From NCBI RefSeq assembly GCF_030013595.1, contig NZ_CP122768.1: DNA of 64,000 nucleotides; one strand, given 5' to 3'. Shown one piece after another: positions 3,561 to 50,175 of the stretch (position 1 is the stretch's first letter; each line of letters opens with the position of its first letter). Under the pieces are notes generated by a model. That model searched no databases, had not been told where the DNA came from, and worked only from the letters and a program-made list of their open reading frames with translations. The stretch is from Escherichia coli. GTDB lineage: Bacteria > Pseudomonadota > Gammaproteobacteria > Enterobacterales > Enterobacteriaceae. Made by a program: the position numbers and the translations under genes.

Positions 3561-4415
3561 TCAGGGTGCAAGCTGTCTGACCCTTTCCCGATATTCTCCC
3601 GGAGTACAACCAAACTCGCGGACAAACGCCTTGTGAAAAGATGATTCACTGGCATAGCCTACTGACTCAGCGATCACCACAACAGGGAGCGTTTCCCGGG
3701 AAAACATCTGGGCCGCTATTTGTAGACGCAACTTTGTTAATACAGCTAGCGGCGTGGTTCCGGAAACATCACGGAAAAGCTGGGCAAAACTTGCCCGGGA
3801 CATGTGGGCGATGCTGGCCAGCGATTCGACGGTCCAGGCATGTCCTGGCATTTCCAGCATTTGCTGTATTACCGCACCAAGACGTGGATGCAGAAGCAAA
3901 CTGAGAATGTTTTTCTCTGTATTAACCTGTGCAATCCACTCACGCACCGCGAGGGTAAAGAATGTAGCGCAGATCTGGCTACACAGAGCATCCACTCCCG
4001 GCATTGCCGATCTGGATTCCTGTTGTAAAAACGGGATCGCCTCCCTCAGCCAGTTATATTCCACGCTATGGTTCACTGGTGCTACAAACAGCGTTTCCGG
4101 CAAAGACGTTAAAAAATAACGCGCCGAATGTTGCAGCCGAAGAGTGCCACAGACAATACAGGTCGATTCATTATCGACATGACTCAGGCGATGAGCTGAA
4201 TTTTGTGGTAGCAGGACCACATTTCCCGGGCGTAATGTAAAAATCTCTCCCGTCGGCATTTCCAGCTTCGCCGCTCCTTGCGTTAACGCATGCCAACGAA
4301 TAACCGACAATTCCCCGGCACCATGTGGAAGTTGCCAGTCACTTCCTAACACGCAATTCTTATCGATCGTTCCTTGTGGAGCGTTAAGCATCAACAAACG
4401 GCTAAGAGCATCCAT
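3561..4415 (-). CDS. rclR: AraC-family reactive-chlorine regulator RclR (284 aa)
   Basis: C-terminal AraC HTH; divergent from rclA; length matches RclR. Confidence 0.8.
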   Translation of the reverse strand: MDALSRLLMLNAPQGTIDKNCVLGSDWQLPHGAGELSVIRWHALTQGAAKLEMPTGEIFTLRPGNVVLLPQNSAHRLSHVDNESTCIVCGTLRLQHSARYFLTSLPETLFVAPVNHSVEYNWLREAIPFLQQESRSAMPGVDALCSQICATFFTLAVREWIAQVNTEKNILSLLLHPRLGAVIQQMLEMPGHAWTVESLASIAHMSRASFAQLFRDVSGTTPLAVLTKLRLQIAAQMFSRETLPVVVIAESVGYASESSFHKAFVREFGCTPGEYRERVRQLAP

Positions 4416-4641
4416 ATCAGACTCCTGAGTAGTTTTTTAATTACAAACACCAACAATCTTAGTCAATAATTAATCTAATACCATCAAATAGTTAATCATG
4501 ATTTTTGTTTTGTGATTCTGATTAAGAAAAAGAAAATACCAGACGATAAGACAAAATATCAAGCGTTGTGAAGAAATGTTATGTGCTCTTTTGCGTCTAT
4601 AGTCATGATGTCAAATGAACGCGTTTCGACAGGAAATCATC

Positions 4642-5862
4642 ATGAATAAATATCAGGCAGTGATTATTGGTTTTGGCAAGGCTGGAAAAACATTAGCCGT
4701 CACGCTGGCAAAAGCAGGTTGGCGTGTGGCTCTCATCGAACAATCAAATGCAATGTATGGCGGGACCTGTATTAATATCGGCTGTATCCCAACCAAAACA
4801 TTGGTTCATGACGCACAGCAGCACACAGATTTTGTCCGTGCCATACAGCGTAAAAATGAAGTGGTTAATTTTTTACGTAATAAGAATTTTCATAATCTTG
4901 CGGATATGCCCAATATCGACGTGATCGACGGCCAGGCGGAGTTTATCAATAATCATAGCCTGCGTGTTCATCGGCCTGAGGGAAATCTGGAGATTCATGG
5001 CGAGAAAATTTTTATTAATACCGGTGCACAAACCGTGGTTCCGCCAATTCCTGGAATTACCACCACGCCTGGTGTATATGACAGCACCGGATTACTTAAT
5101 CTAAAAGAATTGCCTGGGCATTTAGGTATTTTGGGCGGCGGATATATTGGCGTTGAGTTCGCCTCTATGTTCGCTAATTTTGGCAGCAAGGTAACCATTT
5201 TAGAAGCAGCTTCGCTGTTTTTGCCTCGGGAAGATCGGGATATTGCTGATAATATCGCGACGATTTTACGCGATCAGGGCGTCGATATTATCCTCAATGC
5301 CCATGTGGAGCGAATCAGTCACCATGAAAATCAAGTGCAAGTGCATAGCGAGCACGCCCAACTGGCGGTGGATGCACTGTTAATAGCTTCCGGTCGTCAA
5401 CCAGCTACCGCTTCGTTACATCCAGAAAATGCCGGTATCGCAGTAAACGAGCGCGGGGCAATTGTCGTTGACAAGCGATTACATACCACCGCAGACAATA
5501 TTTGGGCGATGGGAGATGTTACCGGCGGGCTGCAATTTACTTACATATCACTAGATGATTACCGCATTGTACGTGATGAGTTACTGGGTGAAGGCAAACG
5601 TAGTACTGATGATCGGAAAAATGTGCCTTATTCCGTATTTATGACACCGCCCCTGTCCAGGGTTGGTATGACAGAAGAACAAGCCAGAGAGAGTGGTGCT
5701 GATATTCAGGTGGTGACATTGCCTGTAGCTGCAATTCCGCGCGCCAGAGTGATGAACGATACCCGTGGGGTATTAAAAGCGATTGTTGATAATAAAACCC
5801 AACGTATATTAGGGGCATCACTGCTGTGTGTTGACACGAGAGTATTCAAAACACGCCAATAA
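4642..5862 (+). pseudogene. rclA: rclA (pyridine nucleotide-disulfide oxidoreductase), 5' portion; reading frame leaves native sequence after ...LLCVD (about 5835) and ends in element-derived codons TRVFKTRQ*
   Basis: GFGKAG Rossmann motif, CINIGCIPTK redox-active disulfide; K-12 RclA is 441 aa, here first 398 aa then insertion. Confidence 0.8.
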
Positions 5863-5903
5863 CCTCTTGATTCAATTGAAGTCGAAAATTTTAAGTCAAA
5901 AAT

Positions 5904-5929
5904 CGTATAGCTTAACGTGTAGCTAAAAA
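5904..5929. repeat. Sub-terminal repeat cgtatagctTaacgtgtagctaaaaa (left copy), probable integrase-binding/att-associated site
   Basis: Near-identical copy at 16432-16457 (1 mismatch). Confidence 0.55.
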
Positions 5930-6479
5930 TGTTTGCTGCAAAAGTATACAATTTTAACCGTTATGACTCCCTGTTATCCGTTATCAAGCTGGTGGATGAT
6001 CATGGATAACCCGTTATGGGAATCCCCATATCGGCATCAGGCCCATGCCATAACAAAAACCCCATATTCGTGGGTTTTCTGTGTTGTGGCTATTCTGCCG
6101 TTGCCGTGCTGGTGGATATTTCCGGTATGTGGCTCACCATATCGGCATCACGCCCACCAGCGCGACGCATTTTTTTAATTTCGCGGGTGTAAAAATTTGA
6201 CGGGGCGGGCGGTCCTATAAGCAATGGGGGGTAGGGATTTCGATCCCCCCTCCTGAATGCAATTTTCCGTATGTGGCTGTGCGGCAATCATACTCGTCAC
6301 ATGTTTTTGACAATAAAAGGCCCGACCGTGAGACTCACAAACAAAAAAGTTACGGAGAAACAGGGGATCGGGCTCGGTTGCCGCTAAATCTATTCAATTA
6401 AAAGAAGATGTCAATAGGGAAAACGAAAAAAAACAATGCTGATATTGTCATAATTTGAACAAAACCACTATATGTAGTT

Positions 6480-6710
6480 TTAGTTCATGAGGTTAGTCGC
6501 TACCAGATGCGTCAATAGTTTTTTGCTATTAATAATCCCTCTTTTTCCATCGGGAGCTTTGCACTTGTCACTACCTGGTAACTCCTGGTGGCGTTCCTGT
6601 TGCAGCACAACGGAAACAGGCGCTGAACACCTGTTAATTTTGCTTGCAGGTTGTTTGATTTCGGCAATGCTGCGGATCATCTCCAGCATATCGGCTTCGG
6701 TGATGGTCAT
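6480..6710 (-). CDS. Hypothetical small protein (76 aa) in satellite
   Basis: ORF only; lies just beyond the cos-like repeat block. Confidence 0.25.
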   Translation of the reverse strand: MTITEADMLEMIRSIAEIKQPASKINRCSAPVSVVLQQERHQELPGSDKCKAPDGKRGIINSKKLLTHLVATNLMN

Positions 6711-6718
6711 GATTTACA

Positions 6719-6995
6719 CCTTAGGAAATCTTAGGGGCTGGTTGACACTTTCCGGCTTAAGACCTTAACAAATCTTAACATCGCAGGTTGACACACTTGA
6801 CACTTTTTCGCGAAAAACCTTATCAAACCTTAGCATTTCTAAGCATGGCAACTTGACACTTTTCGCGATTTTTTCGGCTTTTTGACGTGGTAAATCTGGC
6901 GCAAAGCCAGTAACGGCGGGGTTTACAGCGAGGTTGACACTTTTTCGCGTTCAGAGTGTAAAGTGTCAACCTGGCAAGCTGCTCAACTTGACACT
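6719..6995. repeat. Cos/pac-like repeat block: at least 6 direct copies of TTGACAC(TTTT) (6742, 6788, 6797, 6853, 6934, 6988) plus one inverted copy (6963) interleaved with CTTAnnAAAnCTTA repeats
   Basis: Repeats counted directly; adjacent to TerS-like gene. Confidence 0.5.
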
Positions 6996-27887: not shown

Positions 27888-28135
27888 ATGACAAATAAAC
27901 ACCTATCACTGTTTTCTCCTTTTATGCTGACAGAAAAAAAATAAAGCCATGTAATCGTATCGTTATGGCTCCTATGACGACCTGGTCAGCTAATCCTGAT
28001 GGAACCATCTCTGAGCAAGAACTCGAATATTATAAACGTCGCTCACAAAATATTGGTTTAGTAATTACAGGATATACCTATGTCACGCCAAGGAAATTCA
28101 GGCATCGAAAGGAACTGGCTGGTTTCCGTTAATGG
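27888..28135 (+). pseudogene. Decayed fragment of Old Yellow Enzyme-type NADH:flavin oxidoreductase
   Basis: Frameshifted ORF with OYE N-terminal pattern (LFSPFML ... NRIVMAPMTTWSANPDGTISEQELEYYKRRSQN); stops and frameshifts. Confidence 0.4.
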
Positions 28136-28611
28136 ATTAAATATCTATTACTCTCCCGAGTGTAAAACTATCAAACCAATGAGTAACCGATACAGCCTCG
28201 CAAATTCTTTCAGATAATTAACCCGTCACTGCGGCACGTTCTCTCATAAGGCGTGCCTGCTGTGTAATCCAGTATGGATCCAGCATAGTTGACGGCTTAA
28301 TAGACTCAATTCCTTTCCCAGGTTACCAACAACGATATCTTGTATAACACCCCAGAAGATACGACATTATGATGAGATGAGGTATGCTCCTCAGCGCCAA
28401 TCAACGCCAGGGCTGGGCCAGTTTTGAGATCAGACTCATTCCCGGACTGACTTCAGGCGACATATATCAATGACGTTGGGGCAATAAAAGATAGCCGATG
28501 TAATACATCTATTCAAATTTGTGATACATGTCAAAAAATTGGTTGACCAAACTCGTTATTTATATAAGGGCACTTACGAAGTGCACTCTTTTTTAAAGCG
28601 AGGAAGTACCA

Positions 28612-28713
28612 ATGAAAGAGAATAAAGTACAACAAATCAGTCATAAACTGATTAATATCGTTGTTTTTGTCGCAATTGTAGAATACGCCTATTTATTTCT
28701 CCATTTCTATTAA
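28612..28713 (+). CDS. ykgR: Small hydrophobic protein (33 aa), YkgR-like
   Basis: ATG with RBS; position upstream of ykgM; name recalled from memory. Confidence 0.45.
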   Translation: MKENKVQQISHKLINIVVFVAIVEYAYLFLHFY

Positions 28714-29042
28714 TAACGGCAATAAACTGTTCACTTCAGTGATATTAAAAAATATGCATCCTCTCCCTTTTTTGTAAGTAATTATTATATCCGTGGGAGA
28801 GGAATACACGCTGTCCGGCAATCAATCAAACTGCGATAAATCATCGGCCAGTAAAATGGAGATAGCCTCCATTCTCGAAAAATTCATACTCTCAGCGAAA
28901 CCATCACTCATCAAGGCGTTTATGGGAGCGTCGCCAATGGCTGCTAACAATGCCAGACTTCCCCGTTGCCGAAATTCCACATACCACAAATGGTCACAGG
29001 GATTGGGTGTTGAAATGATCCGGATGAGCATGTATCTTTATG

Positions 29043-29062
29043 GTTATGTTATAACATAACAG
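29043..29062. promoter_or_regulatory. Zur box (TGTTATAACATAACA palindrome) upstream of ykgM
   Basis: Palindrome resembling the Zur consensus, about 10 bp before ykgM start. Confidence 0.55.
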
Positions 29063-29068
29063 GTAAAA

Positions 29069-29335
29069 ATGATGAAGCCCAATATCCATCCTGAGTATCG
29101 TACTGTGGTGTTCCACGACACCAGTGTTGATGAGTACTTTAAAATCGGCTCGACTATCAAAACAGACCGTGAGATTGAGCTGGATGGCGTAACGTATCCG
29201 TACGTGACAATTGATGTCTCCTCTAAATCGCACCCGTTCTATACAGGGAAGCTGAGAACAGTGGCATCAGAAGGAAATGTTGCACGATTCACCCAACGTT
29301 TTGGTCGTTTTGTTAGCACGAAAAAGGGGGCATGA
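29069..29335 (+). CDS. ykgM: Ribosomal protein L31 paralog (type B, zinc-independent)
   Basis: [17 protein letters not shown] ... L31 signature. Confidence 0.85.
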
Positions 29336-29475
29336 TGAAAGTCCTTAACTCTCTGCGTACCGCAAAAGAACGCCATCCAGACTGTCAGATTGTGAAGCGA
29401 AAAGGACGGCTATATGTGATTTGTAAATCTAATCCACGTTTTAAGGCCGTTCAGGGTCGTAAGAAAAAACGTTGA
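29335..29475 (+). CDS. ykgO: Ribosomal protein L36 paralog (46 aa), start overlaps ykgM stop
   Basis: [46 protein letters not shown]; not in ORF track because short. Confidence 0.8.
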
Positions 29476-29525
29476 TTCAAAATTCGACGAATTAACGATA
29501 TTTGTCTGATTAATAATCAGACCGG

Positions 29526-29565
29526 ATTAATGTTGGTGTATTTATTACACCAGCATTAATTTTCC
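29526..29565 (+). terminator. Rho-independent terminator after ykgMO
   Basis: Stem TTAATGTTGGTGTA / TACACCAGCATTAA followed by TTTTCC. Confidence 0.55.
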
Positions 29566-30489
29566 TGAGGATGTATCTTCCTGTTCATTTAAGGTCAACT
29601 GCCTGACGTTTCTCTCCGAATATTCCATTATATTAATGTTGACTTGTTGACCAGGTGCGCCCTGTATGCTGGCATCAACTCTCTTTTAGACTGAACACGC
29701 CACTCAGTTTCCTCCCTTTGCGACGCAGCCTGCATTTACACTCAAACGGTTAAGATGATAAATGTGGTAAATCTGTTGGTACTGACATAAAAACGTTTAC
29801 GCCACAGGAACGGCCTGATCCACCGGTAACCCCATCGCCGACGTTCGAGTGCCAGTTAGAGTAACGCGCACAGATGACTGAATGCAGTGCCCTGGCAAAG
29901 AGGCCATCGTTCCTGTGACAACTGGCAGTCTTCGTTTAACTTCACTTAATTTGGCTCTTAGGGGGCTTACCGGACAGATGACGTACTTACACCTGTTTAA
30001 TTTTTCATCACTTATTGGGATGAACACCCATAACCATTTTGTGCGGCATGTTAATCCATTAAAACACCTTACTGATTGGCAAATCATCTTTAATTATGAC
30101 TCATGATAGTTTTATATTCTATTTCTTATCATTTAAACTTGTTTTTTTACTAGTCCATTACACAACACATTAAGACTATTCCTAACACCTCAGGGCAAAG
30201 TTCCTGGCTAATATAAAATGCAAGTAAGAATTGAACGTTATATTGCCAATAACCTTATGAAACTGAATGTCTTTTTCTTCTTATCAAAAAAGCAATATTT
30301 TCATTTTTTGTAAATATTGACTTAACCATGGAATTCCTTTTCTGTTCACATATTGACACTCATCAGGAAAAAAACATAAATTTAAACCTAATCGAAATAA
30401 TTAAAACTTAATCTCGTTTAACCTATATTGATATGTGCTACGTATCTTATTTACTTCCGATTTACTAAAGAAACTGAATGTACCTGTAA

Positions 30490-44197: not shown

Positions 44198-44240
44198 TAT
44201 CGCCTTGTGTAACTTATTCAGCAACGCGCGCCTCGCCGGA

Positions 44241-45434
44241 CTAAAGCGCACCGGCCTTCTGGCGTGCGGTAACAAAGGTCAGTACGCCAGCGCAAAGGAG
44301 CAGCACGCTACTCATAGCAAACGTGCTCTGCCAGCCAAGGCGGTCAAACACAATGCCTCCTGCCGTTGATCCAAGGGCGATGGCGAGCTGAATCACCGCG
44401 ACCATGAGCCCGCCTCCGGCTTCGGCGTTGTCAGGCAACGTACGCGCAATCCATGTCCACCATCCGGTTGGCGCGGCGGTGGCCAGCATGCCCCAGAGTC
44501 CTAACAGCAGCGAGACCGTCCAGACGTGATGCCCGGTAAGCATCAGACCGATGGCAATGACGGCCATCAGTCCGGGTATGGCCATCAGCGTGGGGTAGAA
44601 TTTTCTGTTGAGAAATGCCGAAACAACCAGCGTGCCAATAAAACCGGCCACGCCGATAATCAGCAAAATCGACGACAAGCCTAAGGAATTAACCCGTGTC
44701 ACCGACTCCAGAAACGGGCGCACATAGGTGAATAGCGCAAACTGCCCCATGAAAAACAGGCCACAAGCTATCATGCCGACCACAACCATGCGGCGGCTAA
44801 ATAAGCGGAATACCGCGCCACATGAAGTGTGGCTTTTATTCGCATCCATGCTTGGCAGGCTGATGCACTGCCAGATAAAGGCGACAACCGCGATGGGCAC
44901 CAGGCACAAGAAAGCGCCTCGCCATCCGACCGTAGCCCCCAGATAGCTTCCCAGCGGTGCGGCCACGACCGTCGCCAGCGCATTACCGGCGTTGAAAATT
45001 GCCAGCGCACGCGTGACCTGATGCTGCGGCACCAGACGAATCGCCGTTGCCGCTGACATCGACCAGAATCCGCCAATAGCCACACCAATCATCGCACGAC
45101 CGACCATATACATCAGATAACTGGAAGCCAGCGCAATAATAAGCCCCGATACGGCCATCAGAACCGTCATCCCCAGCAGCAGGAACTTACGATTCATCTT
45201 TCCAGCTAGCGTTGAAAGCGTCAGGCTGGTCAGAACCGCCAGCGCGCCGGAGATAGCAATCCCCTGCCCTGCCAGCCCCTCCGTCACGCCTAAATCGCGG
45301 GTAATCGGCGTGAGCAGGCTGACGGGCATAAATTCAGAAGCAATCAGCACAAACACGCACAGGGTCATGGCAAAAATACCGCCCCAGTATGCGCGCTGAT
45401 GATGAGGTGATAGTGTTTGGCTTAGTGTCGACAT
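44241..45434 (-). CDS. MFS transporter (397 aa)
   Basis: About 12 hydrophobic segments, MFS-like motifs. Confidence 0.8.
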   Translation of the reverse strand: MSTLSQTLSPHHQRAYWGGIFAMTLCVFVLIASEFMPVSLLTPITRDLGVTEGLAGQGIAISGALAVLTSLTLSTLAGKMNRKFLLLGMTVLMAVSGLIIALASSYLMYMVGRAMIGVAIGGFWSMSAATAIRLVPQHQVTRALAIFNAGNALATVVAAPLGSYLGATVGWRGAFLCLVPIAVVAFIWQCISLPSMDANKSHTSCGAVFRLFSRRMVVVGMIACGLFFMGQFALFTYVRPFLESVTRVNSLGLSSILLIIGVAGFIGTLVVSAFLNRKFYPTLMAIPGLMAVIAIGLMLTGHHVWTVSLLLGLWGMLATAAPTGWWTWIARTLPDNAEAGGGLMVAVIQLAIALGSTAGGIVFDRLGWQSTFAMSSVLLLCAGVLTFVTARQKAGAL

Positions 45435-45509
45435 AGTGAAATTTCACAAAGATCAGGATAAAAGCCACCAGCCTATGGCCGATGGCTTTGCATCAATTCA
45501 GGAGAGGTT

Positions 45510-46646
45510 TTATTTCAGTTTGGTCTGGAAAAATTGTTCGAACTTCGCGAAAGGTATTTTTCCGGCCACGTTATCGTACAGGTCCACGTGATTTGCCCCT
45601 GGTACCACCACCAACTCTTTGTCGTTACTGCCAACCGCCTTGTAAGCATCTTCAGCAAAATAACGTGAATGCGCTTTCTCACCGGTCACAATCAGCGTCG
45701 GAATGGTGATTTCACTGGCGTAGCTCAACAGCGGCATATTCATAAATGACAGCGGCATCGTTGCCGTCCACGCCCCGGTAGAGTTAACGGAACGTTCGTG
45801 GAAGCCGCGCGGCATGCGATAGTAGTCAAAGAACTCTTTCAGTACCGGATGAGGATTTGCCGGCAGCGTTTCTGGCAGAATGCGCTCGCCCGCACTGACC
45901 TTGCCGTTGCTGTCGACATTAATATCATGACCACCGTGAGCGAACGTTCCGCTCTTCGCATCCTTCCAGCGCTGTTCATTCAGATATTGCAGAACAGCAC
46001 GACGGTCGGCGGTAGAATAACGGTCTTTGCCATCCCCCACACCATGACCCATCGCCCGGCTCATGTCATACATCACGCTGGTAGCTACCGCTTTAACGCG
46101 GGTATCCATCGCTACGTCGTTCAGCGCCATGCCGCCCCAGCCACAAATACCGAGCAGCCCGATACGGTTGCGATCTACCTCTTTTTGCAGCCCTAAGAAA
46201 TCCACCGCCGCGCTGAAATCTTCAGTGTTGATATCCGGTGAGGCGACGTTTCGCGGATAGCCGCCGCTTTCCCCGGTGTAAGAAGGATCGAACGCCAAGG
46301 TAACAAACCCTCGTTCCGCCAGCGTCTGCGCATACAGGCCGCTGGATTGCTCTTTCACCGCGCCAAATGGCCCACTGACCGCAATCGCCGCCAGCTTGCG
46401 ATCGCCACGGTCTTTAGGCAGGTAAAGATCGCCCACTAAGGTGATGCCATATCGGTTCGGGAACGAGACTTTACGGTGATCGACTTTCTGGCTCTCGGCG
46501 AACGTTTTATCCCATTTATCTGTCATGGACACAGGGGCATTAGGATTGGTTGAATCAGCATAACTCATTGTCGTGACTCCACTTAATGATGCGAAAAGCA
46601 GCATGGTCGGCATCGCGGTTTTTAGCGTGCGGGTGAAGGCTTTCAT
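45510..46646 (-). CDS. Secreted alpha/beta hydrolase, dienelactone hydrolase-like with Cys nucleophile (ORF track start 46667)
   Basis: Signal peptide; GICGWGG nucleophile-elbow variant. Confidence 0.65.
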   Translation of the reverse strand: MKAFTRTLKTAMPTMLLFASLSGVTTMSYADSTNPNAPVSMTDKWDKTFAESQKVDHRKVSFPNRYGITLVGDLYLPKDRGDRKLAAIAVSGPFGAVKEQSSGLYAQTLAERGFVTLAFDPSYTGESGGYPRNVASPDINTEDFSAAVDFLGLQKEVDRNRIGLLGICGWGGMALNDVAMDTRVKAVATSVMYDMSRAMGHGVGDGKDRYSTADRRAVLQYLNEQRWKDAKSGTFAHGGHDINVDSNGKVSAGERILPETLPANPHPVLKEFFDYYRMPRGFHERSVNSTGAWTATMPLSFMNMPLLSYASEITIPTLIVTGEKAHSRYFAEDAYKAVGSNDKELVVVPGANHVDLYDNVAGKIPFAKFEQFFQTKLK

Positions 46647-46832
46647 AAAAATCCCCATAAAAAACAACAGAGAGATACAGGTTTCCGACGGACAACGCTG
46701 CGGTGCTTTGCTTTGATGGGGTCATTATAGTGAGCAGAATTAGTGCTGATTAGGGGGCGATTAATGCTAAGATTAATACCATATTGTTATAAATTAATGT
46801 GGAGATTGCCGGCATGAAGGGGGGATGTTTCA

Positions 46833-47717
46833 ATGGCGAAAAGGGAGAACTACAACGAGCTGTACCTGTTTATGCAGGTGGTGCGAGAAGGCAGCTTTAC
46901 CGCAGCGGCTCAGCGGCTGGGTCTTGCTCAGTCAGGAGTCAGCCGTTCTGTTCGCGAGCTTGAAGAAAGGCTGGGCGTCCAGCTGCTAGTGCGCACCACG
47001 CGTAAACTGTCGCTGACACAAGCAGGCGAGCAGCTCTACCAGAAGACGGCATCTGGATTTGAAATGTTAGATCTTGGGCTTGCCACGCTGGCGCACTATC
47101 GAGAGACGCCCTCCGGCACGGTGCGTATCAATGCCAGCCAGCACGCGATTGATAAATGCCTGCTGCCAAAGCTGGCGGTATTTAAACAGAGATATCCTGA
47201 TATCCGGCTTGAACTGATAAATGAGAGCCGGTTCGTCGATATCATCGAGGAAAGATTCGATGCAGGTGTCCGCCTGGGGCCTGAAGTCGGCCAGGGTATG
47301 GTCGCGGTACGCATCACGCCCGATATGGAGATGGCAATTGTGGGGACTCCGGAACATTTTCGTCGCTATGGTTTTCCGCAAACCCCGGCGGATTTAAAGG
47401 CGCATCCCTGTATCGCCTATCAGTTTGCCGACGGCAGCGTATACCAGTGGGAACTCAATCAGGATGATAAAAAAATCACTCATCGCCCTGAAGGGCAATG
47501 GGCCCTATCCGACAGCTATATGGAAGCAGAAGCCGCCCGGCTGGGCCTCGGATTGGCCTATGTTCCTGTTGAACTGGTCGCGGATGATTTAGAACACGGT
47601 AAGCTTATCAGGGTGTTGCAGCGTTACAGCCTGCGAATGGAGGGATTGTTTCTCTATTACCCTCATCGCAACGTCTCCCCCGCCCTGCGGATGGTCATTG
47701 ATACATTGAAAATCTGA
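46833..47717 (+). CDS. LysR-family transcriptional regulator (294 aa)
   Basis: N-terminal HTH LYLFMQVVREGSFTAAAQRLGLAQSGVSRSVRELEERL. Confidence 0.8.
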   Translation: MAKRENYNELYLFMQVVREGSFTAAAQRLGLAQSGVSRSVRELEERLGVQLLVRTTRKLSLTQAGEQLYQKTASGFEMLDLGLATLAHYRETPSGTVRINASQHAIDKCLLPKLAVFKQRYPDIRLELINESRFVDIIEERFDAGVRLGPEVGQGMVAVRITPDMEMAIVGTPEHFRRYGFPQTPADLKAHPCIAYQFADGSVYQWELNQDDKKITHRPEGQWALSDSYMEAEAARLGLGLAYVPVELVADDLEHGKLIRVLQRYSLRMEGLFLYYPHRNVSPALRMVIDTLKI

Positions 47718-47930
47718 ACGTTAACAACGACCGACTCTTCACTGTGCAAAATTGTGTCAGGTAGTCCCTCTGCGTTCAATTCCAGGGTCTGTACAGTCTG
47801 CTTTGAGCGAGAAAGAGGGGACTATCCAGCAATGGAGATCACCCAAAAGAAAAAACCACCTGGCTCCCTCGACAACCTTCATCCAGGCATTTAGCCTCAA
47901 TCAACATTTTTATATCTGTCAGGTTACTTC

Positions 47931-48215
47931 ATGATGAAAACTGATCATTATCGTTGTTTTTGTTGCAATAGTAGAATACGCGTATTTATTCCTCCATCTC
48001 TATTAATAACGGCAATAAACTGTTCACTTCACTGATATTTAAAATATGTATCCTTTTCAAGCTGTTCAGCGGCGTAAGAAAAAGTATTAATTATGAATTC
48101 GATGATTTAACCATATCTGTCTGATTGGTAATCATCCGTGATTAATGCTGGTCTATTGATTACGCCAGCATTAACCGCTTAGGGATGTATTCTTCCTGTT
48201 CATATAGCCCTCGAA
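47931..48215. repeat. Degenerate paralogous copy of the ykgR - ykgO-downstream flank (copy 1 at 28612-29600) with ykgM/ykgO coding part deleted
   Basis: Aligned by eye: shared ...attaataacggcaataaactgttcacttca... and terminator-like ccagcattaa segments. Confidence 0.55.
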
Positions 48216-48301
48216 AAAGAGAGAAAATAAAACTGTGTCCAATATTAATTTACCACTCCAGACCGAAGCATCGGTGGGATTAGCAGAATGATCTGCGTCT
48301 G

Positions 48302-48517
48302 ATGTTGAGGCTGGCTCTTGCCGGCGCAGGCATAACAATTGCCACTCAGGAAACTTTCAGGCCATATATTGAAAGCGGTAAGCTTGTATCGCTGCTTGAT
48401 GACTTTCTTCCACAATTTCCGGGCTTCTATCTGTATTTCCCACAGCGTCGCAATATTGCACCAAAGCTCCGCGCCCTGATTGACCACGTCAAGGAATGGC
48501 GGCAGCAATTGGCTTAA
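48302..48517 (+). pseudogene. yagP: LysR-family C-terminal fragment (yagP-like remnant)
   Basis: 71-aa ORF matching LysR substrate-binding C-terminus only. Confidence 0.5.
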
Positions 48518-48644: not shown

Positions 48645-48692
48645 TGGTGCCGATAAGAGGAGTCGAACCTCCGACCTTCGCATTACGAATTA
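48645..48692 (-). other. tRNA-Thr(CGU) 3' fragment (anticodon loop through CCA); att-site remnant at island boundary
   Basis: Reverse complement reads ...ctaattCGTaatgcgaaggtcggaggttcgactcctcttatcggcacca; 5' half lacks D-arm and acceptor pairing. Confidence 0.6.
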
Positions 48693-48855
48693 GCGAGACC
48701 AGTGATTCAAGATGTTCACATCCGTTTCAGCATACAATAAAAAATATATAAAAATCAACAAAATAGACATAAATGCAGTATCAAGATGTTTCGCCTTGTT
48801 TCTGATGATATCATGTTAAATGTGTACCCCACTGTGTACCCAAAAGGCTGAAGAT

Positions 48856-50175
48856 ATGACTTTTACTATTACACAAGACAGACAATTGGCTTCATTGACC
48901 GTTACTAAAGAAGAAAAAGAAATCTTATTTGCTGTAAAATCTAAAGCTGGGGGAGGACTCTTTATACGCGTTCGTTATGGTAGCGACAATAAAAGCTGGA
49001 TTTATCGTTATCGAATAGCTCAAAAGCCAGCTAAATTAACACTAGGTAGTTACCCTGCCATGGGATTAGCTCAAGCTCGTAAAGCTCATGCGGATGCAAT
49101 TGAATTAGTAAGAAAAGGTATAGATCCTCGTCATATTAGAAAAAATGAAAAACAAAAAAATGAACAAATGATTATTTACTCTGAATTATGGAAAGATTGG
49201 ATAGAATTCAGAAAGACAAGTAAACCAATTAGCACCAGACCCCTTGCAGATTATGAAGGGACTTATCACCGCCACCTTGAAAAAGCATTAGGAAACCTTC
49301 GCATTGACGAACTTACCAAAAGCGTTATTTTTGAACATCTCAGTAATGTAAGAAAAACCAGTTCTGAAGCAGTTCGTAAAGGATTAATTATTCTAAATAT
49401 GACTCTTGATCATGCCAACTTACAGGGTATGCTTGAGCATAACCCAGCACGACTGCTCAAACCAGCAATGTTTGGTGCATCGATGAATAAACCTCGCGAG
49501 CGATGGCTTCCTGAGAATGAACTCCGGATGCTATGGAAGGCTTTGGATGATGCTACTGTTGGAGGAGGCTCCATTGCATCTGGTGGCTATGGAATTTCCT
49601 CTAGTGTGGTATTATCTCATTCTGTCGCAAATGCACTCCGTTTGATTATTTTCACAGGAGTGCGCCGCTCTGAAGCGGCACAAATGCGCTGGGATCAAAT
49701 TAATGGAGAGCGTTGGACCATACCAGCCACTAAAAATGGGAAAAGCCATATTGTTACTTTACATCCGTATATGCTTTCTTTAATAAAAACACAACGTGAA
49801 TTCACTGAAGGTGCATATGTTTTTGGTTCTACTAGCAAACCTGGCTTTCCCATCACAAATGACGCTCTGACTCGCGCGTTAGAAAGGGTTCGCTCTAAGT
49901 ATCTAGCCGAACTTACTCCATTTTCTCCTCATGATCTGCGTAGAAGTGTTGCGACTGGATGCGCTGAATACCTTGATGCTCCAGAGCGCCTAATAGAGTT
50001 ACTGTTAAATCATGTACCCAAAGACCGTTTAATACGAACATATCAAGTCGGACAACAAGCTGAAAAATTAAAAAATTTATTTATAGAATGGGGGAATTTT
50101 ATTATGAATAACGTCATTACTGTGCAGCAGAATGCTCCGGATAATGTTATTCATATAAAATTTGGGAACAGATGA
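48856..50175 (+). CDS. Tyrosine integrase of CP4-type island (IntF-like; alternative start 48820)
   Basis: Integrase domain (R...HDLRRS...Y); adjacent to tRNA fragment. Confidence 0.8.
   Translation: MTFTITQDRQLASLTVTKEEKEILFAVKSKAGGGLFIRVRYGSDNKSWIYRYRIAQKPAKLTLGSYPAMGLAQARKAHADAIELVRKGIDPRHIRKNEKQKNEQMIIYSELWKDWIEFRKTSKPISTRPLADYEGTYHRHLEKALGNLRIDELTKSVIFEHLSNVRKTSSEAVRKGLIILNMTLDHANLQGMLEHNPARLLKPAMFGASMNKPRERWLPENELRMLWKALDDATVGGGSIASGGYGISSSVVLSHSVANALRLIIFTGVRRSEAAQMRWDQINGERWTIPATKNGKSHIVTLHPYMLSLIKTQREFTEGAYVFGSTSKPGFPITNDALTRALERVRSKYLAELTPFSPHDLRRSVATGCAEYLDAPERLIELLLNHVPKDRLIRTYQVGQQAEKLKNLFIEWGNFIMNNVITVQQNAPDNVIHIKFGNR

Follow-up and report, generated by a model that had tools for sequence, protein, structure and literature searches.

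A Probable Relic of a Second ykgR–ykgM–ykgO Module in the thrW-Proximal Region of Escherichia coli

Introduction

The closest described counterpart of the locus reported here is the ykgR–ykgM–ykgO locus of Escherichia coli K-12 (b4671, b0296, and b4506), which consists of a small membrane protein gene and Zur-repressed, zinc-free paralogues of the ribosomal proteins L31 and L36. The same locus is present in the window, i.e., the whole 64-kb stretch of E. coli DNA analyzed in this study, where it is referred to as copy A. About 19 kb away lies a second, degenerate stretch (copy B), which is derived from this locus and, compared with it, lacks ykgM, the Zur-box region, the promoter, and the start codon.

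Gene relics near tRNA hot spots, such as ptwF, yagP, and ykgP around CP4-6 in K-12, provide a further comparison. Like these relics, copy B is short, promoterless, and affected by lineage-specific deletions, and it adjoins thrW and an integrase island; unlike them, it is composed of two non-adjacent parts of a module that are joined by an internal deletion, and it is kept in ~17% of genomes. A ykgM-only paralogue of the O157/O145 type, located next to ure genes, resembles copy B in being an extra partial copy of the module in island DNA. However, this paralogue has an intact ykgM coding sequence (80.7% identity), contains neither ykgR nor ykgO nor homology to the two segments of copy B described below, and is unrelated to copy B.

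Part of copy B has already been annotated. The RefSeq/PGAP pipeline calls a 69-bp ykgR′ [quoted passage not shown] as with K7X31_RS23085 of E. coli VCSW7, E4U70_RS28325 of O157:H7 F7349, and a further call in strain AR_0372, so that the ykgR′ part is already known as a RefSeq pseudogene. This 69-bp feature corresponds to 47938–48006 of the window and covers the ykgR′ codons only, whereas the ykgR 3′ flank, the ykgO′ codons, the hairpin, and the tie to the whole module are unannotated. No duplicate of ykgR was found among the matches listed for literature containing "ykgR," as represented by their titles and abstracts. K-12 has no copy B, which is probably the reason that the literature centered on this strain is silent on it.

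Results

Homology Between the Two Copies

Copy A is the intact locus, with the following features:

28612..28713, + strand: ykgR, intact, 33 codons (ORF; full-length match to NCBIfam NF041474 membrane_YkgR, positions 1–33, 78.1 bits; RefSeq annotation of the collinear VCSW7 locus agrees)
28645..28762, + strand: segment 1 of copy A, comprising ykgR codons 12–33 and 49 nt downstream (91% identical to 47938–48054)
28763..29438, + strand: 676 bp present in A and not in B, comprising the post-ykgR hairpin, the palindrome, ykgM, and most of ykgO (alignment gap, ORFs)
28759–28803: hairpin after ykgR (-21.1 kcal/mol)
29043–29060: palindrome upstream of ykgM (inverted self-match), described in the literature as the Zur box of ykgM
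29072–29335, + strand: ykgM of copy A (ORF)
29335..29475, + strand: ykgO (type B L36) of copy A, 47 codons (ORF and annotation)
29439..29591, + strand: segment 2 of copy A, comprising the last 12 ykgO codons, intergenic DNA, the hairpin at 29524–29562, and ~30 nt beyond (78% identical to 48054–48206)

Two segments of copy A recur in copy B, collinear and in direct orientation. In blastn searches with DUST masking on, segment 1 (A 28645–28762 vs. B 47938–48054) was identical at 107 of 118 columns (90.7%, ~91%; E = 6e-41), and segment 2 (A 29439–29591 vs. B 48054–48206) at 123 of 157 columns (77–78%; 8 gap columns; E = 8e-27). A and B agree exactly over at most 33 consecutive nt in segment 1 and at most 13 in segment 2, and no further comparable match to either segment was found in the whole 64-kb window by blastn with low-complexity masking. 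The first-pass annotation had proposed that the flanks of ykgR and ykgO are present as a degenerate duplicate ~19 kb apart; both stretches were recovered, and with low-complexity sequence masked, which was the check named beforehand as the refutation, identity remained far beyond chance. Alignment and gene order also agree with its view that the two copies bracket the ecp–ykgJ–yagU–pao–MFS–hydrolase–LysR block.

Anatomy and Coding Capacity of Copy B

Copy B and its neighbors have the following features:

46833..47717, + strand: LysR1, left neighbor of B and last gene of the MFS–hydrolase–LysR cassette (ORF)
47938..48054, + strand: segment 1 of copy B, comprising the ykgR′ pseudogene and 48 nt downstream (alignment; PGAP pseudogene label)
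47938–48006, + strand: ykgR′, codons 12–33 and stop, without start codon (NF041474 positions 12–33)
48054..48206, + strand: segment 2 of copy B, comprising ykgO′, intergenic DNA, and the hairpin at 48142–48174, with the T-run lost (unannotated in RefSeq records)
48055–48090, + strand: ykgO′, last 12 codons with K>Q, G>R, and R>Y (alignment)
48302..48517, + strand: C-terminal fragment of LysR2 (yagP equivalent), right neighbor of B (98.6% identical to the intact O157 protein)

Segments 1 and 2 meet at 48054 in copy B, from which A 28763–29438 (676 bp) is missing; the junction reads ATCC-TTTT-CAAGC and fits 1 nt of microhomology. What is left is a stretch of ~270 bp, in which the end of ykgR is fused straight to the end of ykgO and followed by the hairpin and ~30 nt more, and from which the first 11 ykgR codons, the Zur-box region, ykgM, and 35 of the 47 ykgO codons are absent. 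The coding part of ykgM and ykgO had been described as missing from this copy, which holds for ykgM and most of ykgO but not for the last 12 ykgO codons, kept at 48055–48090. The sequence from 47931 had likewise been described as a copy of the ykgR start region; homology begins only at codon 12 (28645/47938), and the ATGATG at 47931 lies in another frame and is not homologous to the ykgR start. Neither the 220-bp spacer to the left of copy B nor the 95 bp to its right has a homologue elsewhere in the window, and when the left spacer was compared with the Kluyvera, Klebsiella, and other-Escherichia loci, no match extended past the end of the LysR1 gene.

Copy B does not qualify as a ykgR gene, since it has no full-length match to NF041474 and no in-frame start codon with a ribosome-binding site. 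Only positions 12–33 of this model (cutoff 40 bits) are matched, with 36.1 bits for the allele of the window and 43.1 bits for the O157 allele. In the ykgR frame, TGA TGA directly precedes copy B, and the nearby ATGs are out of frame in all three alleles. Nor does copy B represent a type B L31/L36 operon of the Zur regulon, because intact ykgM and ykgO and the Zur-box palindrome are absent. The substitutions K>Q, G>R, and R>Y in ykgO′ are non-conservative and affect positions that do not vary among the intact YkgO proteins retrieved. A search for an intact B-type ykgO, using a YkgO query with the C-terminus of copy B (…FQAVQRRKKKY), returned no protein with that ending, which indicates that these residues reflect decay. 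No sigma-70-like promoter was found by a promoter scan of 47700–48400. A 34-aa ORF in an alternative frame (47931–48035) is open in two B alleles.

The terminator-like hairpin noted downstream of ykgO (A 29524–29562) is indeed also present in copy B (48142–48174). Its predicted fold is stable in both copies, with energies of -24.6 kcal/mol (z -5.4) in A and -23.3 kcal/mol (z -4.2) in B; neither hairpin passes a terminator scan. In copy A the hairpin is followed only by UUUU and in copy B by CCGCUUAG, so that the short U-run of A is lost in B. Searches against Rfam 15 gave no match at the gathering score; the sole match in A was to the folP RNA (20.8 bits vs. 99), and there was none in B. A search against Pfam found nothing.

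Distribution in E. coli

A junction-spanning query (47938–48206) was covered at least 80% in 912 of 5,426 complete E. coli genomes (~17%), and all carriers of copy B among the rows sampled from this search also have copy A. The B region of the window matches that of VCSW7 at 100% identity, and in VCSW7 the interval from ykgR to LysR1 has the same gene order, small indels aside. In K-12, paoD abuts yagP, and the MFS–hydrolase–LysR1 cassette and copy B are deleted.

Three divergent B alleles have identical left truncations and internal junctions. To the right of copy B, the window and VCSW7 carry the LysR2 fragment followed by thrW; O157 carries a YdgH-like gene, an SDR gene, and an intact LysR2; and AR_0372 carries AbiEii/AbiEi and a reverse transcriptase. 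The identical truncation and junction in three alleles with three different right flanks indicate that the relic formed once, before these lineages diverged. Compared with O157:H7, the window has lost the YdgH-like gene, the SDR gene, and the 5′ part of LysR2. A small hypothetical gene to the right of copy B in O157 was considered as a ykgL paralogue and gave no blastp match.

Neither an intact B-type module nor a second B-type ykgM–ykgO was found in the 5,426 E. coli genomes. Additional ykgM matches in O157/O145 genomes were considered as an intact copy B; the homologue on plasmid pB39_V is the ykgM-only paralogue next to ure genes, and the additional matches are taken to be the same ykgM-only paralogue. 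Sixteen full-length matches (96–99%) that might have represented a plasmid-borne module are located, judging from record sizes and sources only, on F-prime-like or chromosome-sized records filed as plasmids. The 20-mer AACGGCAATAAACTGTTCAC, which was scanned over genome contigs to gather other species, gave two chance matches only, both in Bacteroidota; it had no E. coli match because K-12, which we assume to be the E. coli representative in the scanned contig collection, has a SNP in it.

Comparison with Other Species

In Salmonella and Citrobacter, ykgM–ykgO is located between an EAL-domain (ylaB-like) gene and ylaC–maa–hha–tomB–acrB, and the ~200 bp that separate the EAL gene from ykgM contain no called gene. 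In E. marmotae, LysR_A is followed by NmrA, a BhsA-like gene, ykgR, ykgM, ykgO, and, further on, yagU, and the ecp operon is absent. The E. marmotae LysR–NmrA–BhsA trio was considered as an inverted form of the O157 YdgH-like–SDR–LysR2 trio and showed only general LysR family similarity (38%). E. fergusonii has LysR_A, a fragment of a flavin-oxidoreductase gene, and ykgR; past the equivalent of 28807, an integrase fragment and att-like DNA follow, and ykgM–ykgO is absent from this locus. Thus the upstream LysR_A context of copy A is common to E. coli, E. fergusonii, and E. marmotae, which indicates that A occupies the older position and that B is the derived copy.

In E. albertii, ykgR–ykgM–ykgO occurs in another context, adjoining tRNA(CAT) and csiD–gab, a site that is presumably the ileY neighborhood. 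Homology between E. albertii and copy A of E. coli extends from ~28497 to ~29596, and the right end of copy B is equivalent to 29591; these matching limits define a discrete module of ~1.1 kb. Within Escherichia, ykgR–ykgM–ykgO appears as a compact module in differing, often tRNA-adjacent, contexts.

Copy B is 90–91.5% identical to E. coli copy A in segment 1 and 72–78% in segment 2, compared with 82–85% and 68–74%, respectively, between E. coli copy A and the other Escherichia species. When derived states were polarized by parsimony against the outgroups, 12 were shared by A and B in segment 1, 3 were found in A only, and 4 in B only; the corresponding numbers in segment 2 were 5, 11, and 11. 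Together, the identities and shared derived states, from the comparison with E. albertii, E. fergusonii, and E. marmotae, place copy B as a putative paralogue that originated on the E. coli stem, as opposed to an import from another genus. The stem vs. tip contrast in divergence between the two segments has a Fisher p of 0.0008, or of 0.11 when a 21-nt patch of clustered changes is scored as a single event. Purifying selection on the ykgR codons or later gene conversion could account for this unequal divergence; separate histories of segments 1 and 2, or a later gene conversion affecting segment 1, are possible.

The cassettes on either side of copy B are also found outside E. coli. Kluyvera and Klebsiella carry the three-gene MFS–hydrolase–LysR1 cassette in unrelated contexts with no ykgR nearby, and the YdgH-like–SDR–LysR2 cassette occurs in Enterobacter (E. 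cloacae; 85% DNA identity); overall, both cassettes have 85–91% homologues in Kluyvera, Klebsiella, Raoultella, and Enterobacter. In the Kluyvera, Klebsiella, and Enterobacter genomes sampled, none of ykgR, ykgM, and ykgO lies beside either cassette.

Discussion

Origin and Decay of Copy B

Copy B shows no sign of present function and is an ordinary remnant of a gene cluster, decaying in the variable region close to thrW. We consider it likely that this stretch is the non-functional remnant of a second, complete ykgR–ykgM–ykgO module of ~1.1 kb that later decayed. The module would span ~28.49 to 29.59 kb on the copy A side, taking in the ykgR promoter, ykgR, the Zur-regulated ykgM–ykgO, and the terminator-like hairpin. 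Its second copy, which lies in variable DNA adjoining thrW, would date from the E. coli stem, being younger than the separation from E. marmotae, E. fergusonii, and E. albertii but older than the diversification of E. coli itself. The Zur-box region, ykgM, and the greater part of ykgO would then have been lost through an illegitimate internal deletion (676 bp, 1 nt of microhomology), and the promoter and the first 11 ykgR codons through a separate event. Subsequent changes differ among lineages and include deletion of the YdgH-like gene, the SDR gene, and the 5′ part of LysR2 in the lineage of this window, insertion of AbiE and reverse-transcriptase genes in other strains, and loss of the whole relic in K-12.

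The substitutions in ykgR′ bear on whether the second copy was once complete. Changes common to all B alleles are three synonymous ones (ATT>ATC, ATT>ATA, and GCC>GCG) and no non-synonymous one, and the allele-specific changes are six non-synonymous and no synonymous ones; the argument rests on nine substitutions in total. This pattern, synonymous in the stem and non-synonymous at the tips, favors a complete module that was duplicated and then decayed, and suggests that ykgR of copy B may have been under selection for a time before losing its 5′ end. From these codon changes we infer that the duplicate was probably once complete and its ykgR briefly functional. Today, copy B does nothing beyond supplying weak homology 19 kb from copy A.

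The main rival that we keep for the origin of copy B, which we nevertheless regard as unlikely, is a tandem duplication of 19.3 kb, from the middle of ykgR to just past LysR1, in which the join truncated ykgR′ from birth and most of the second unit was then deleted. Bacteria commonly undergo tandem duplication with later collapse, and the two copies are direct and adjacent, with B beginning in the middle of a gene right behind the gene that closes the bracketed block. However, a ykgR′ truncated from birth fits poorly with the stem changes, three of three being synonymous, for which the chance is ~0.02 if synonymous changes make up about one quarter of random ones. To the right of 48206 no DNA traceable to a second unit is present, and a tandem origin further needs a second deletion that ends exactly at the natural right boundary of the module, as well as an MFS–hydrolase–LysR1 cassette that was already in place.

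It is also quite doubtful that the ~1.1-kb ykgR–ykgM–ykgO unit, which adjoins thrW-proximal DNA in E. coli and tRNA(CAT) in E. albertii and of which ykgM–ykgO alone occupies the ylaB-like/ylaC site in Salmonella and Citrobacter, behaves in Escherichia as a discrete zinc-sparing cassette that is relocated repeatedly, with copy B being a fossil of one such relocation whose ykgR was once functional, and with a possible remaining role for the hairpin or the 34-aa ORF.

Testing of the Repeats as Boundaries of a Mobile Block

The first-pass annotation had further suggested that the bracketed block could have been mobilized or rearranged as a unit, which would make the A/B repeats functional boundaries along which the ecp–pao–MFS–hydrolase–LysR genes are excised, duplicated, or transferred as one piece. 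We consider this highly improbable. The repeats are direct and bracket the block, the 33-nt exact run in segment 1 slightly exceeds the ~25 nt that is the minimum for RecA-dependent exchange, and thrW beside copy B is an integration hot spot with an integrase at 48820–50175. However, this integrase is part of the thrW island outside the repeats, and no transposase, integrase, target-site duplication, or att site was found at the repeat edges. The repeats are short and only 78–91% identical, and a divergence of 9–22% is strongly anti-recombinogenic. Synthetic junction queries were built for both expected products, joining A-left to B-right for the 19.3-kb deletion and B-left to A-right for the tandem duplication, and a joined match to either A × B recombinant junction was found in none of the 5,426 complete E. 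coli genomes.

The loss of ykgM through thrW in E. fergusonii breaks after 28807, beyond the junction of copy B, and is therefore not an A × B exchange. The bracketed block is itself mosaic, its parts having been acquired separately: E. marmotae has yagU without ecp, MFS–hydrolase–LysR occurs alone elsewhere, and K-12 has ecp–pao without the cassette or copy B. These differing histories leave movement of the block as a unit unsupported. An excisable unit would be expected to show recombinants in the population, a block present as one unit, and near-identical ends or mobility genes, and copies A and B show none of these. Of the earlier reading, a degenerate direct duplicate bracketing the block thus stands, whereas its mobilization as a unit does not.

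Import of copy B from another genus, along with the MFS–hydrolase–LysR1 or the YdgH-like–SDR–LysR2 cassette, can be largely dismissed: the homologues of both cassettes in other genera would suit it, and segment 2 of copy B is as diverged from E. coli copy A as are the A orthologues of other Escherichia, but neither cassette adjoins ykgR, ykgM, or ykgO in the donor-like genomes sampled, Salmonella and Citrobacter keep ykgM–ykgO between ylaB-like and ylaC genes with no called gene in the ~200 bp upstream, and A and B share the E. coli-specific derived states (12 in segment 1 and 5 in segment 2).

Conclusion

Nothing about the two repeats indicates that they have served to mobilize the ecp fimbrial operon or the pao aldehyde oxidoreductase genes. 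Copy B explains the "partial YkgR" called by PGAP and extends it by ~200 bp to include the ykgR 3′ flank, ykgO′, and the hairpin. Present in ~17% of complete genomes and with three distinct right flanks, it is usable as a lineage marker, and it probably records a time when the thrW-proximal region, which has been decaying by deletion ever since, contained two copies of ykgR–ykgM–ykgO.

Genes flanking the decayed second copy

The decayed second copy of the ykgR-ykgM-ykgO region (copy B, 47938-48206) lies between LysR1, a LysR-type gene on its left, and a fragment of a second one, LysR2, on its right. Features in and around this copy are as follows.

~44200-47717: conserved triad of MFS transporter, alpha/beta hydrolase and LysR1
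47931-48035, + strand: 34-aa ORF with an ATGATG start inside copy B, in a frame other than that of ykgR
48302-48517: LysR2 C-terminal fragment, 71 aa, counterpart of K-12 yagP
48645-50175: partial thrW and integrase island
48820-50175: integrase, 451 aa, in the island beyond the thrW part

Proteins of the MFS-hydrolase-LysR1 triad share 85-90% identity with those of Kluyvera, Raoultella, Enterobacter and Klebsiella, where the genomic surroundings are unrelated, and the triad is absent from K-12. In O157:H7 (4562-6727 of the retrieved locus, L002), the LysR2 gene is intact and, together with the YdgH-like and SDR genes ahead of it, makes up a three-gene cassette with 85% DNA identity to Enterobacter cloacae. 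The 34-aa ORF is likewise open in the O157 allele of copy B and is annotated as a "hypothetical protein" at this position in some RefSeq records; it had no match in Pfam or NCBIfam.

Identity to strain VCSW7 is 100% up to 48690, which is 46 nt inside thrW, counted from its 3′ end; beyond this point the window departs from VCSW7 and enters the island with the integrase gene. Because ARAGORN found no complete tRNA in the entire 64-kb window, the thrW piece at 48645-48690 is a partial tRNA copy of the att type, located at an element integrated into thrW.

Surroundings of the intact copy

Three features adjoin the intact ykgR-ykgM-ykgO (copy A).

27965-28132, + strand: flavin (OYE-type) oxidoreductase remnant, 55-aa ORF, upstream of ykgR
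28570-28594, + strand: terminator-like hairpin GCACTTACGAAGTGC with a T-run, directly 5′ of the ykgR ribosome-binding site
29545-29735, - strand: ykgL, broken into two ORFs, downstream of ykgO

The oxidoreductase gene is intact in VCSW7 and cut down to the 55-aa ORF in the window, and ykgL of VCSW7 is annotated as frameshifted. The upstream hairpin is kept in E. fergusonii and E. albertii. Between the window and K-12, identity is 98% in segment 1 of the duplication (28645-28762 in copy A) and 94.8% in segment 2 (29439-29591); the latter, which spans the 3′ end of ykgO and the hairpin that follows it, is unusually polymorphic within E. coli.

ykgM-ykgO in relatives and a ykgM-only paralogue

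The location of ykgM-ykgO varies among relatives (loci L011, L012, L017, L014-L016 and L019-L021). In Salmonella and Citrobacter these genes are flanked by a ylaB-like gene and ylaC, and the ~200 bp upstream contain no called gene; in E. albertii they adjoin a tRNA(CAT) and csiD-gab. No ykgM-ykgO follows ykgR in E. fergusonii, and E. marmotae has ykgM-ykgO and lacks the ecp operon. A ykgM-only paralogue (80.7% identity) is located at 4000-4263 of the retrieved locus from plasmid pB39_V (L022), adjoining ureC-ureG and a hok/gef gene. Several O157/O145 strains also contain a second ykgM match, which in such chromosomes we take to represent a putative ykgM-only paralogue of the pB39_V type.
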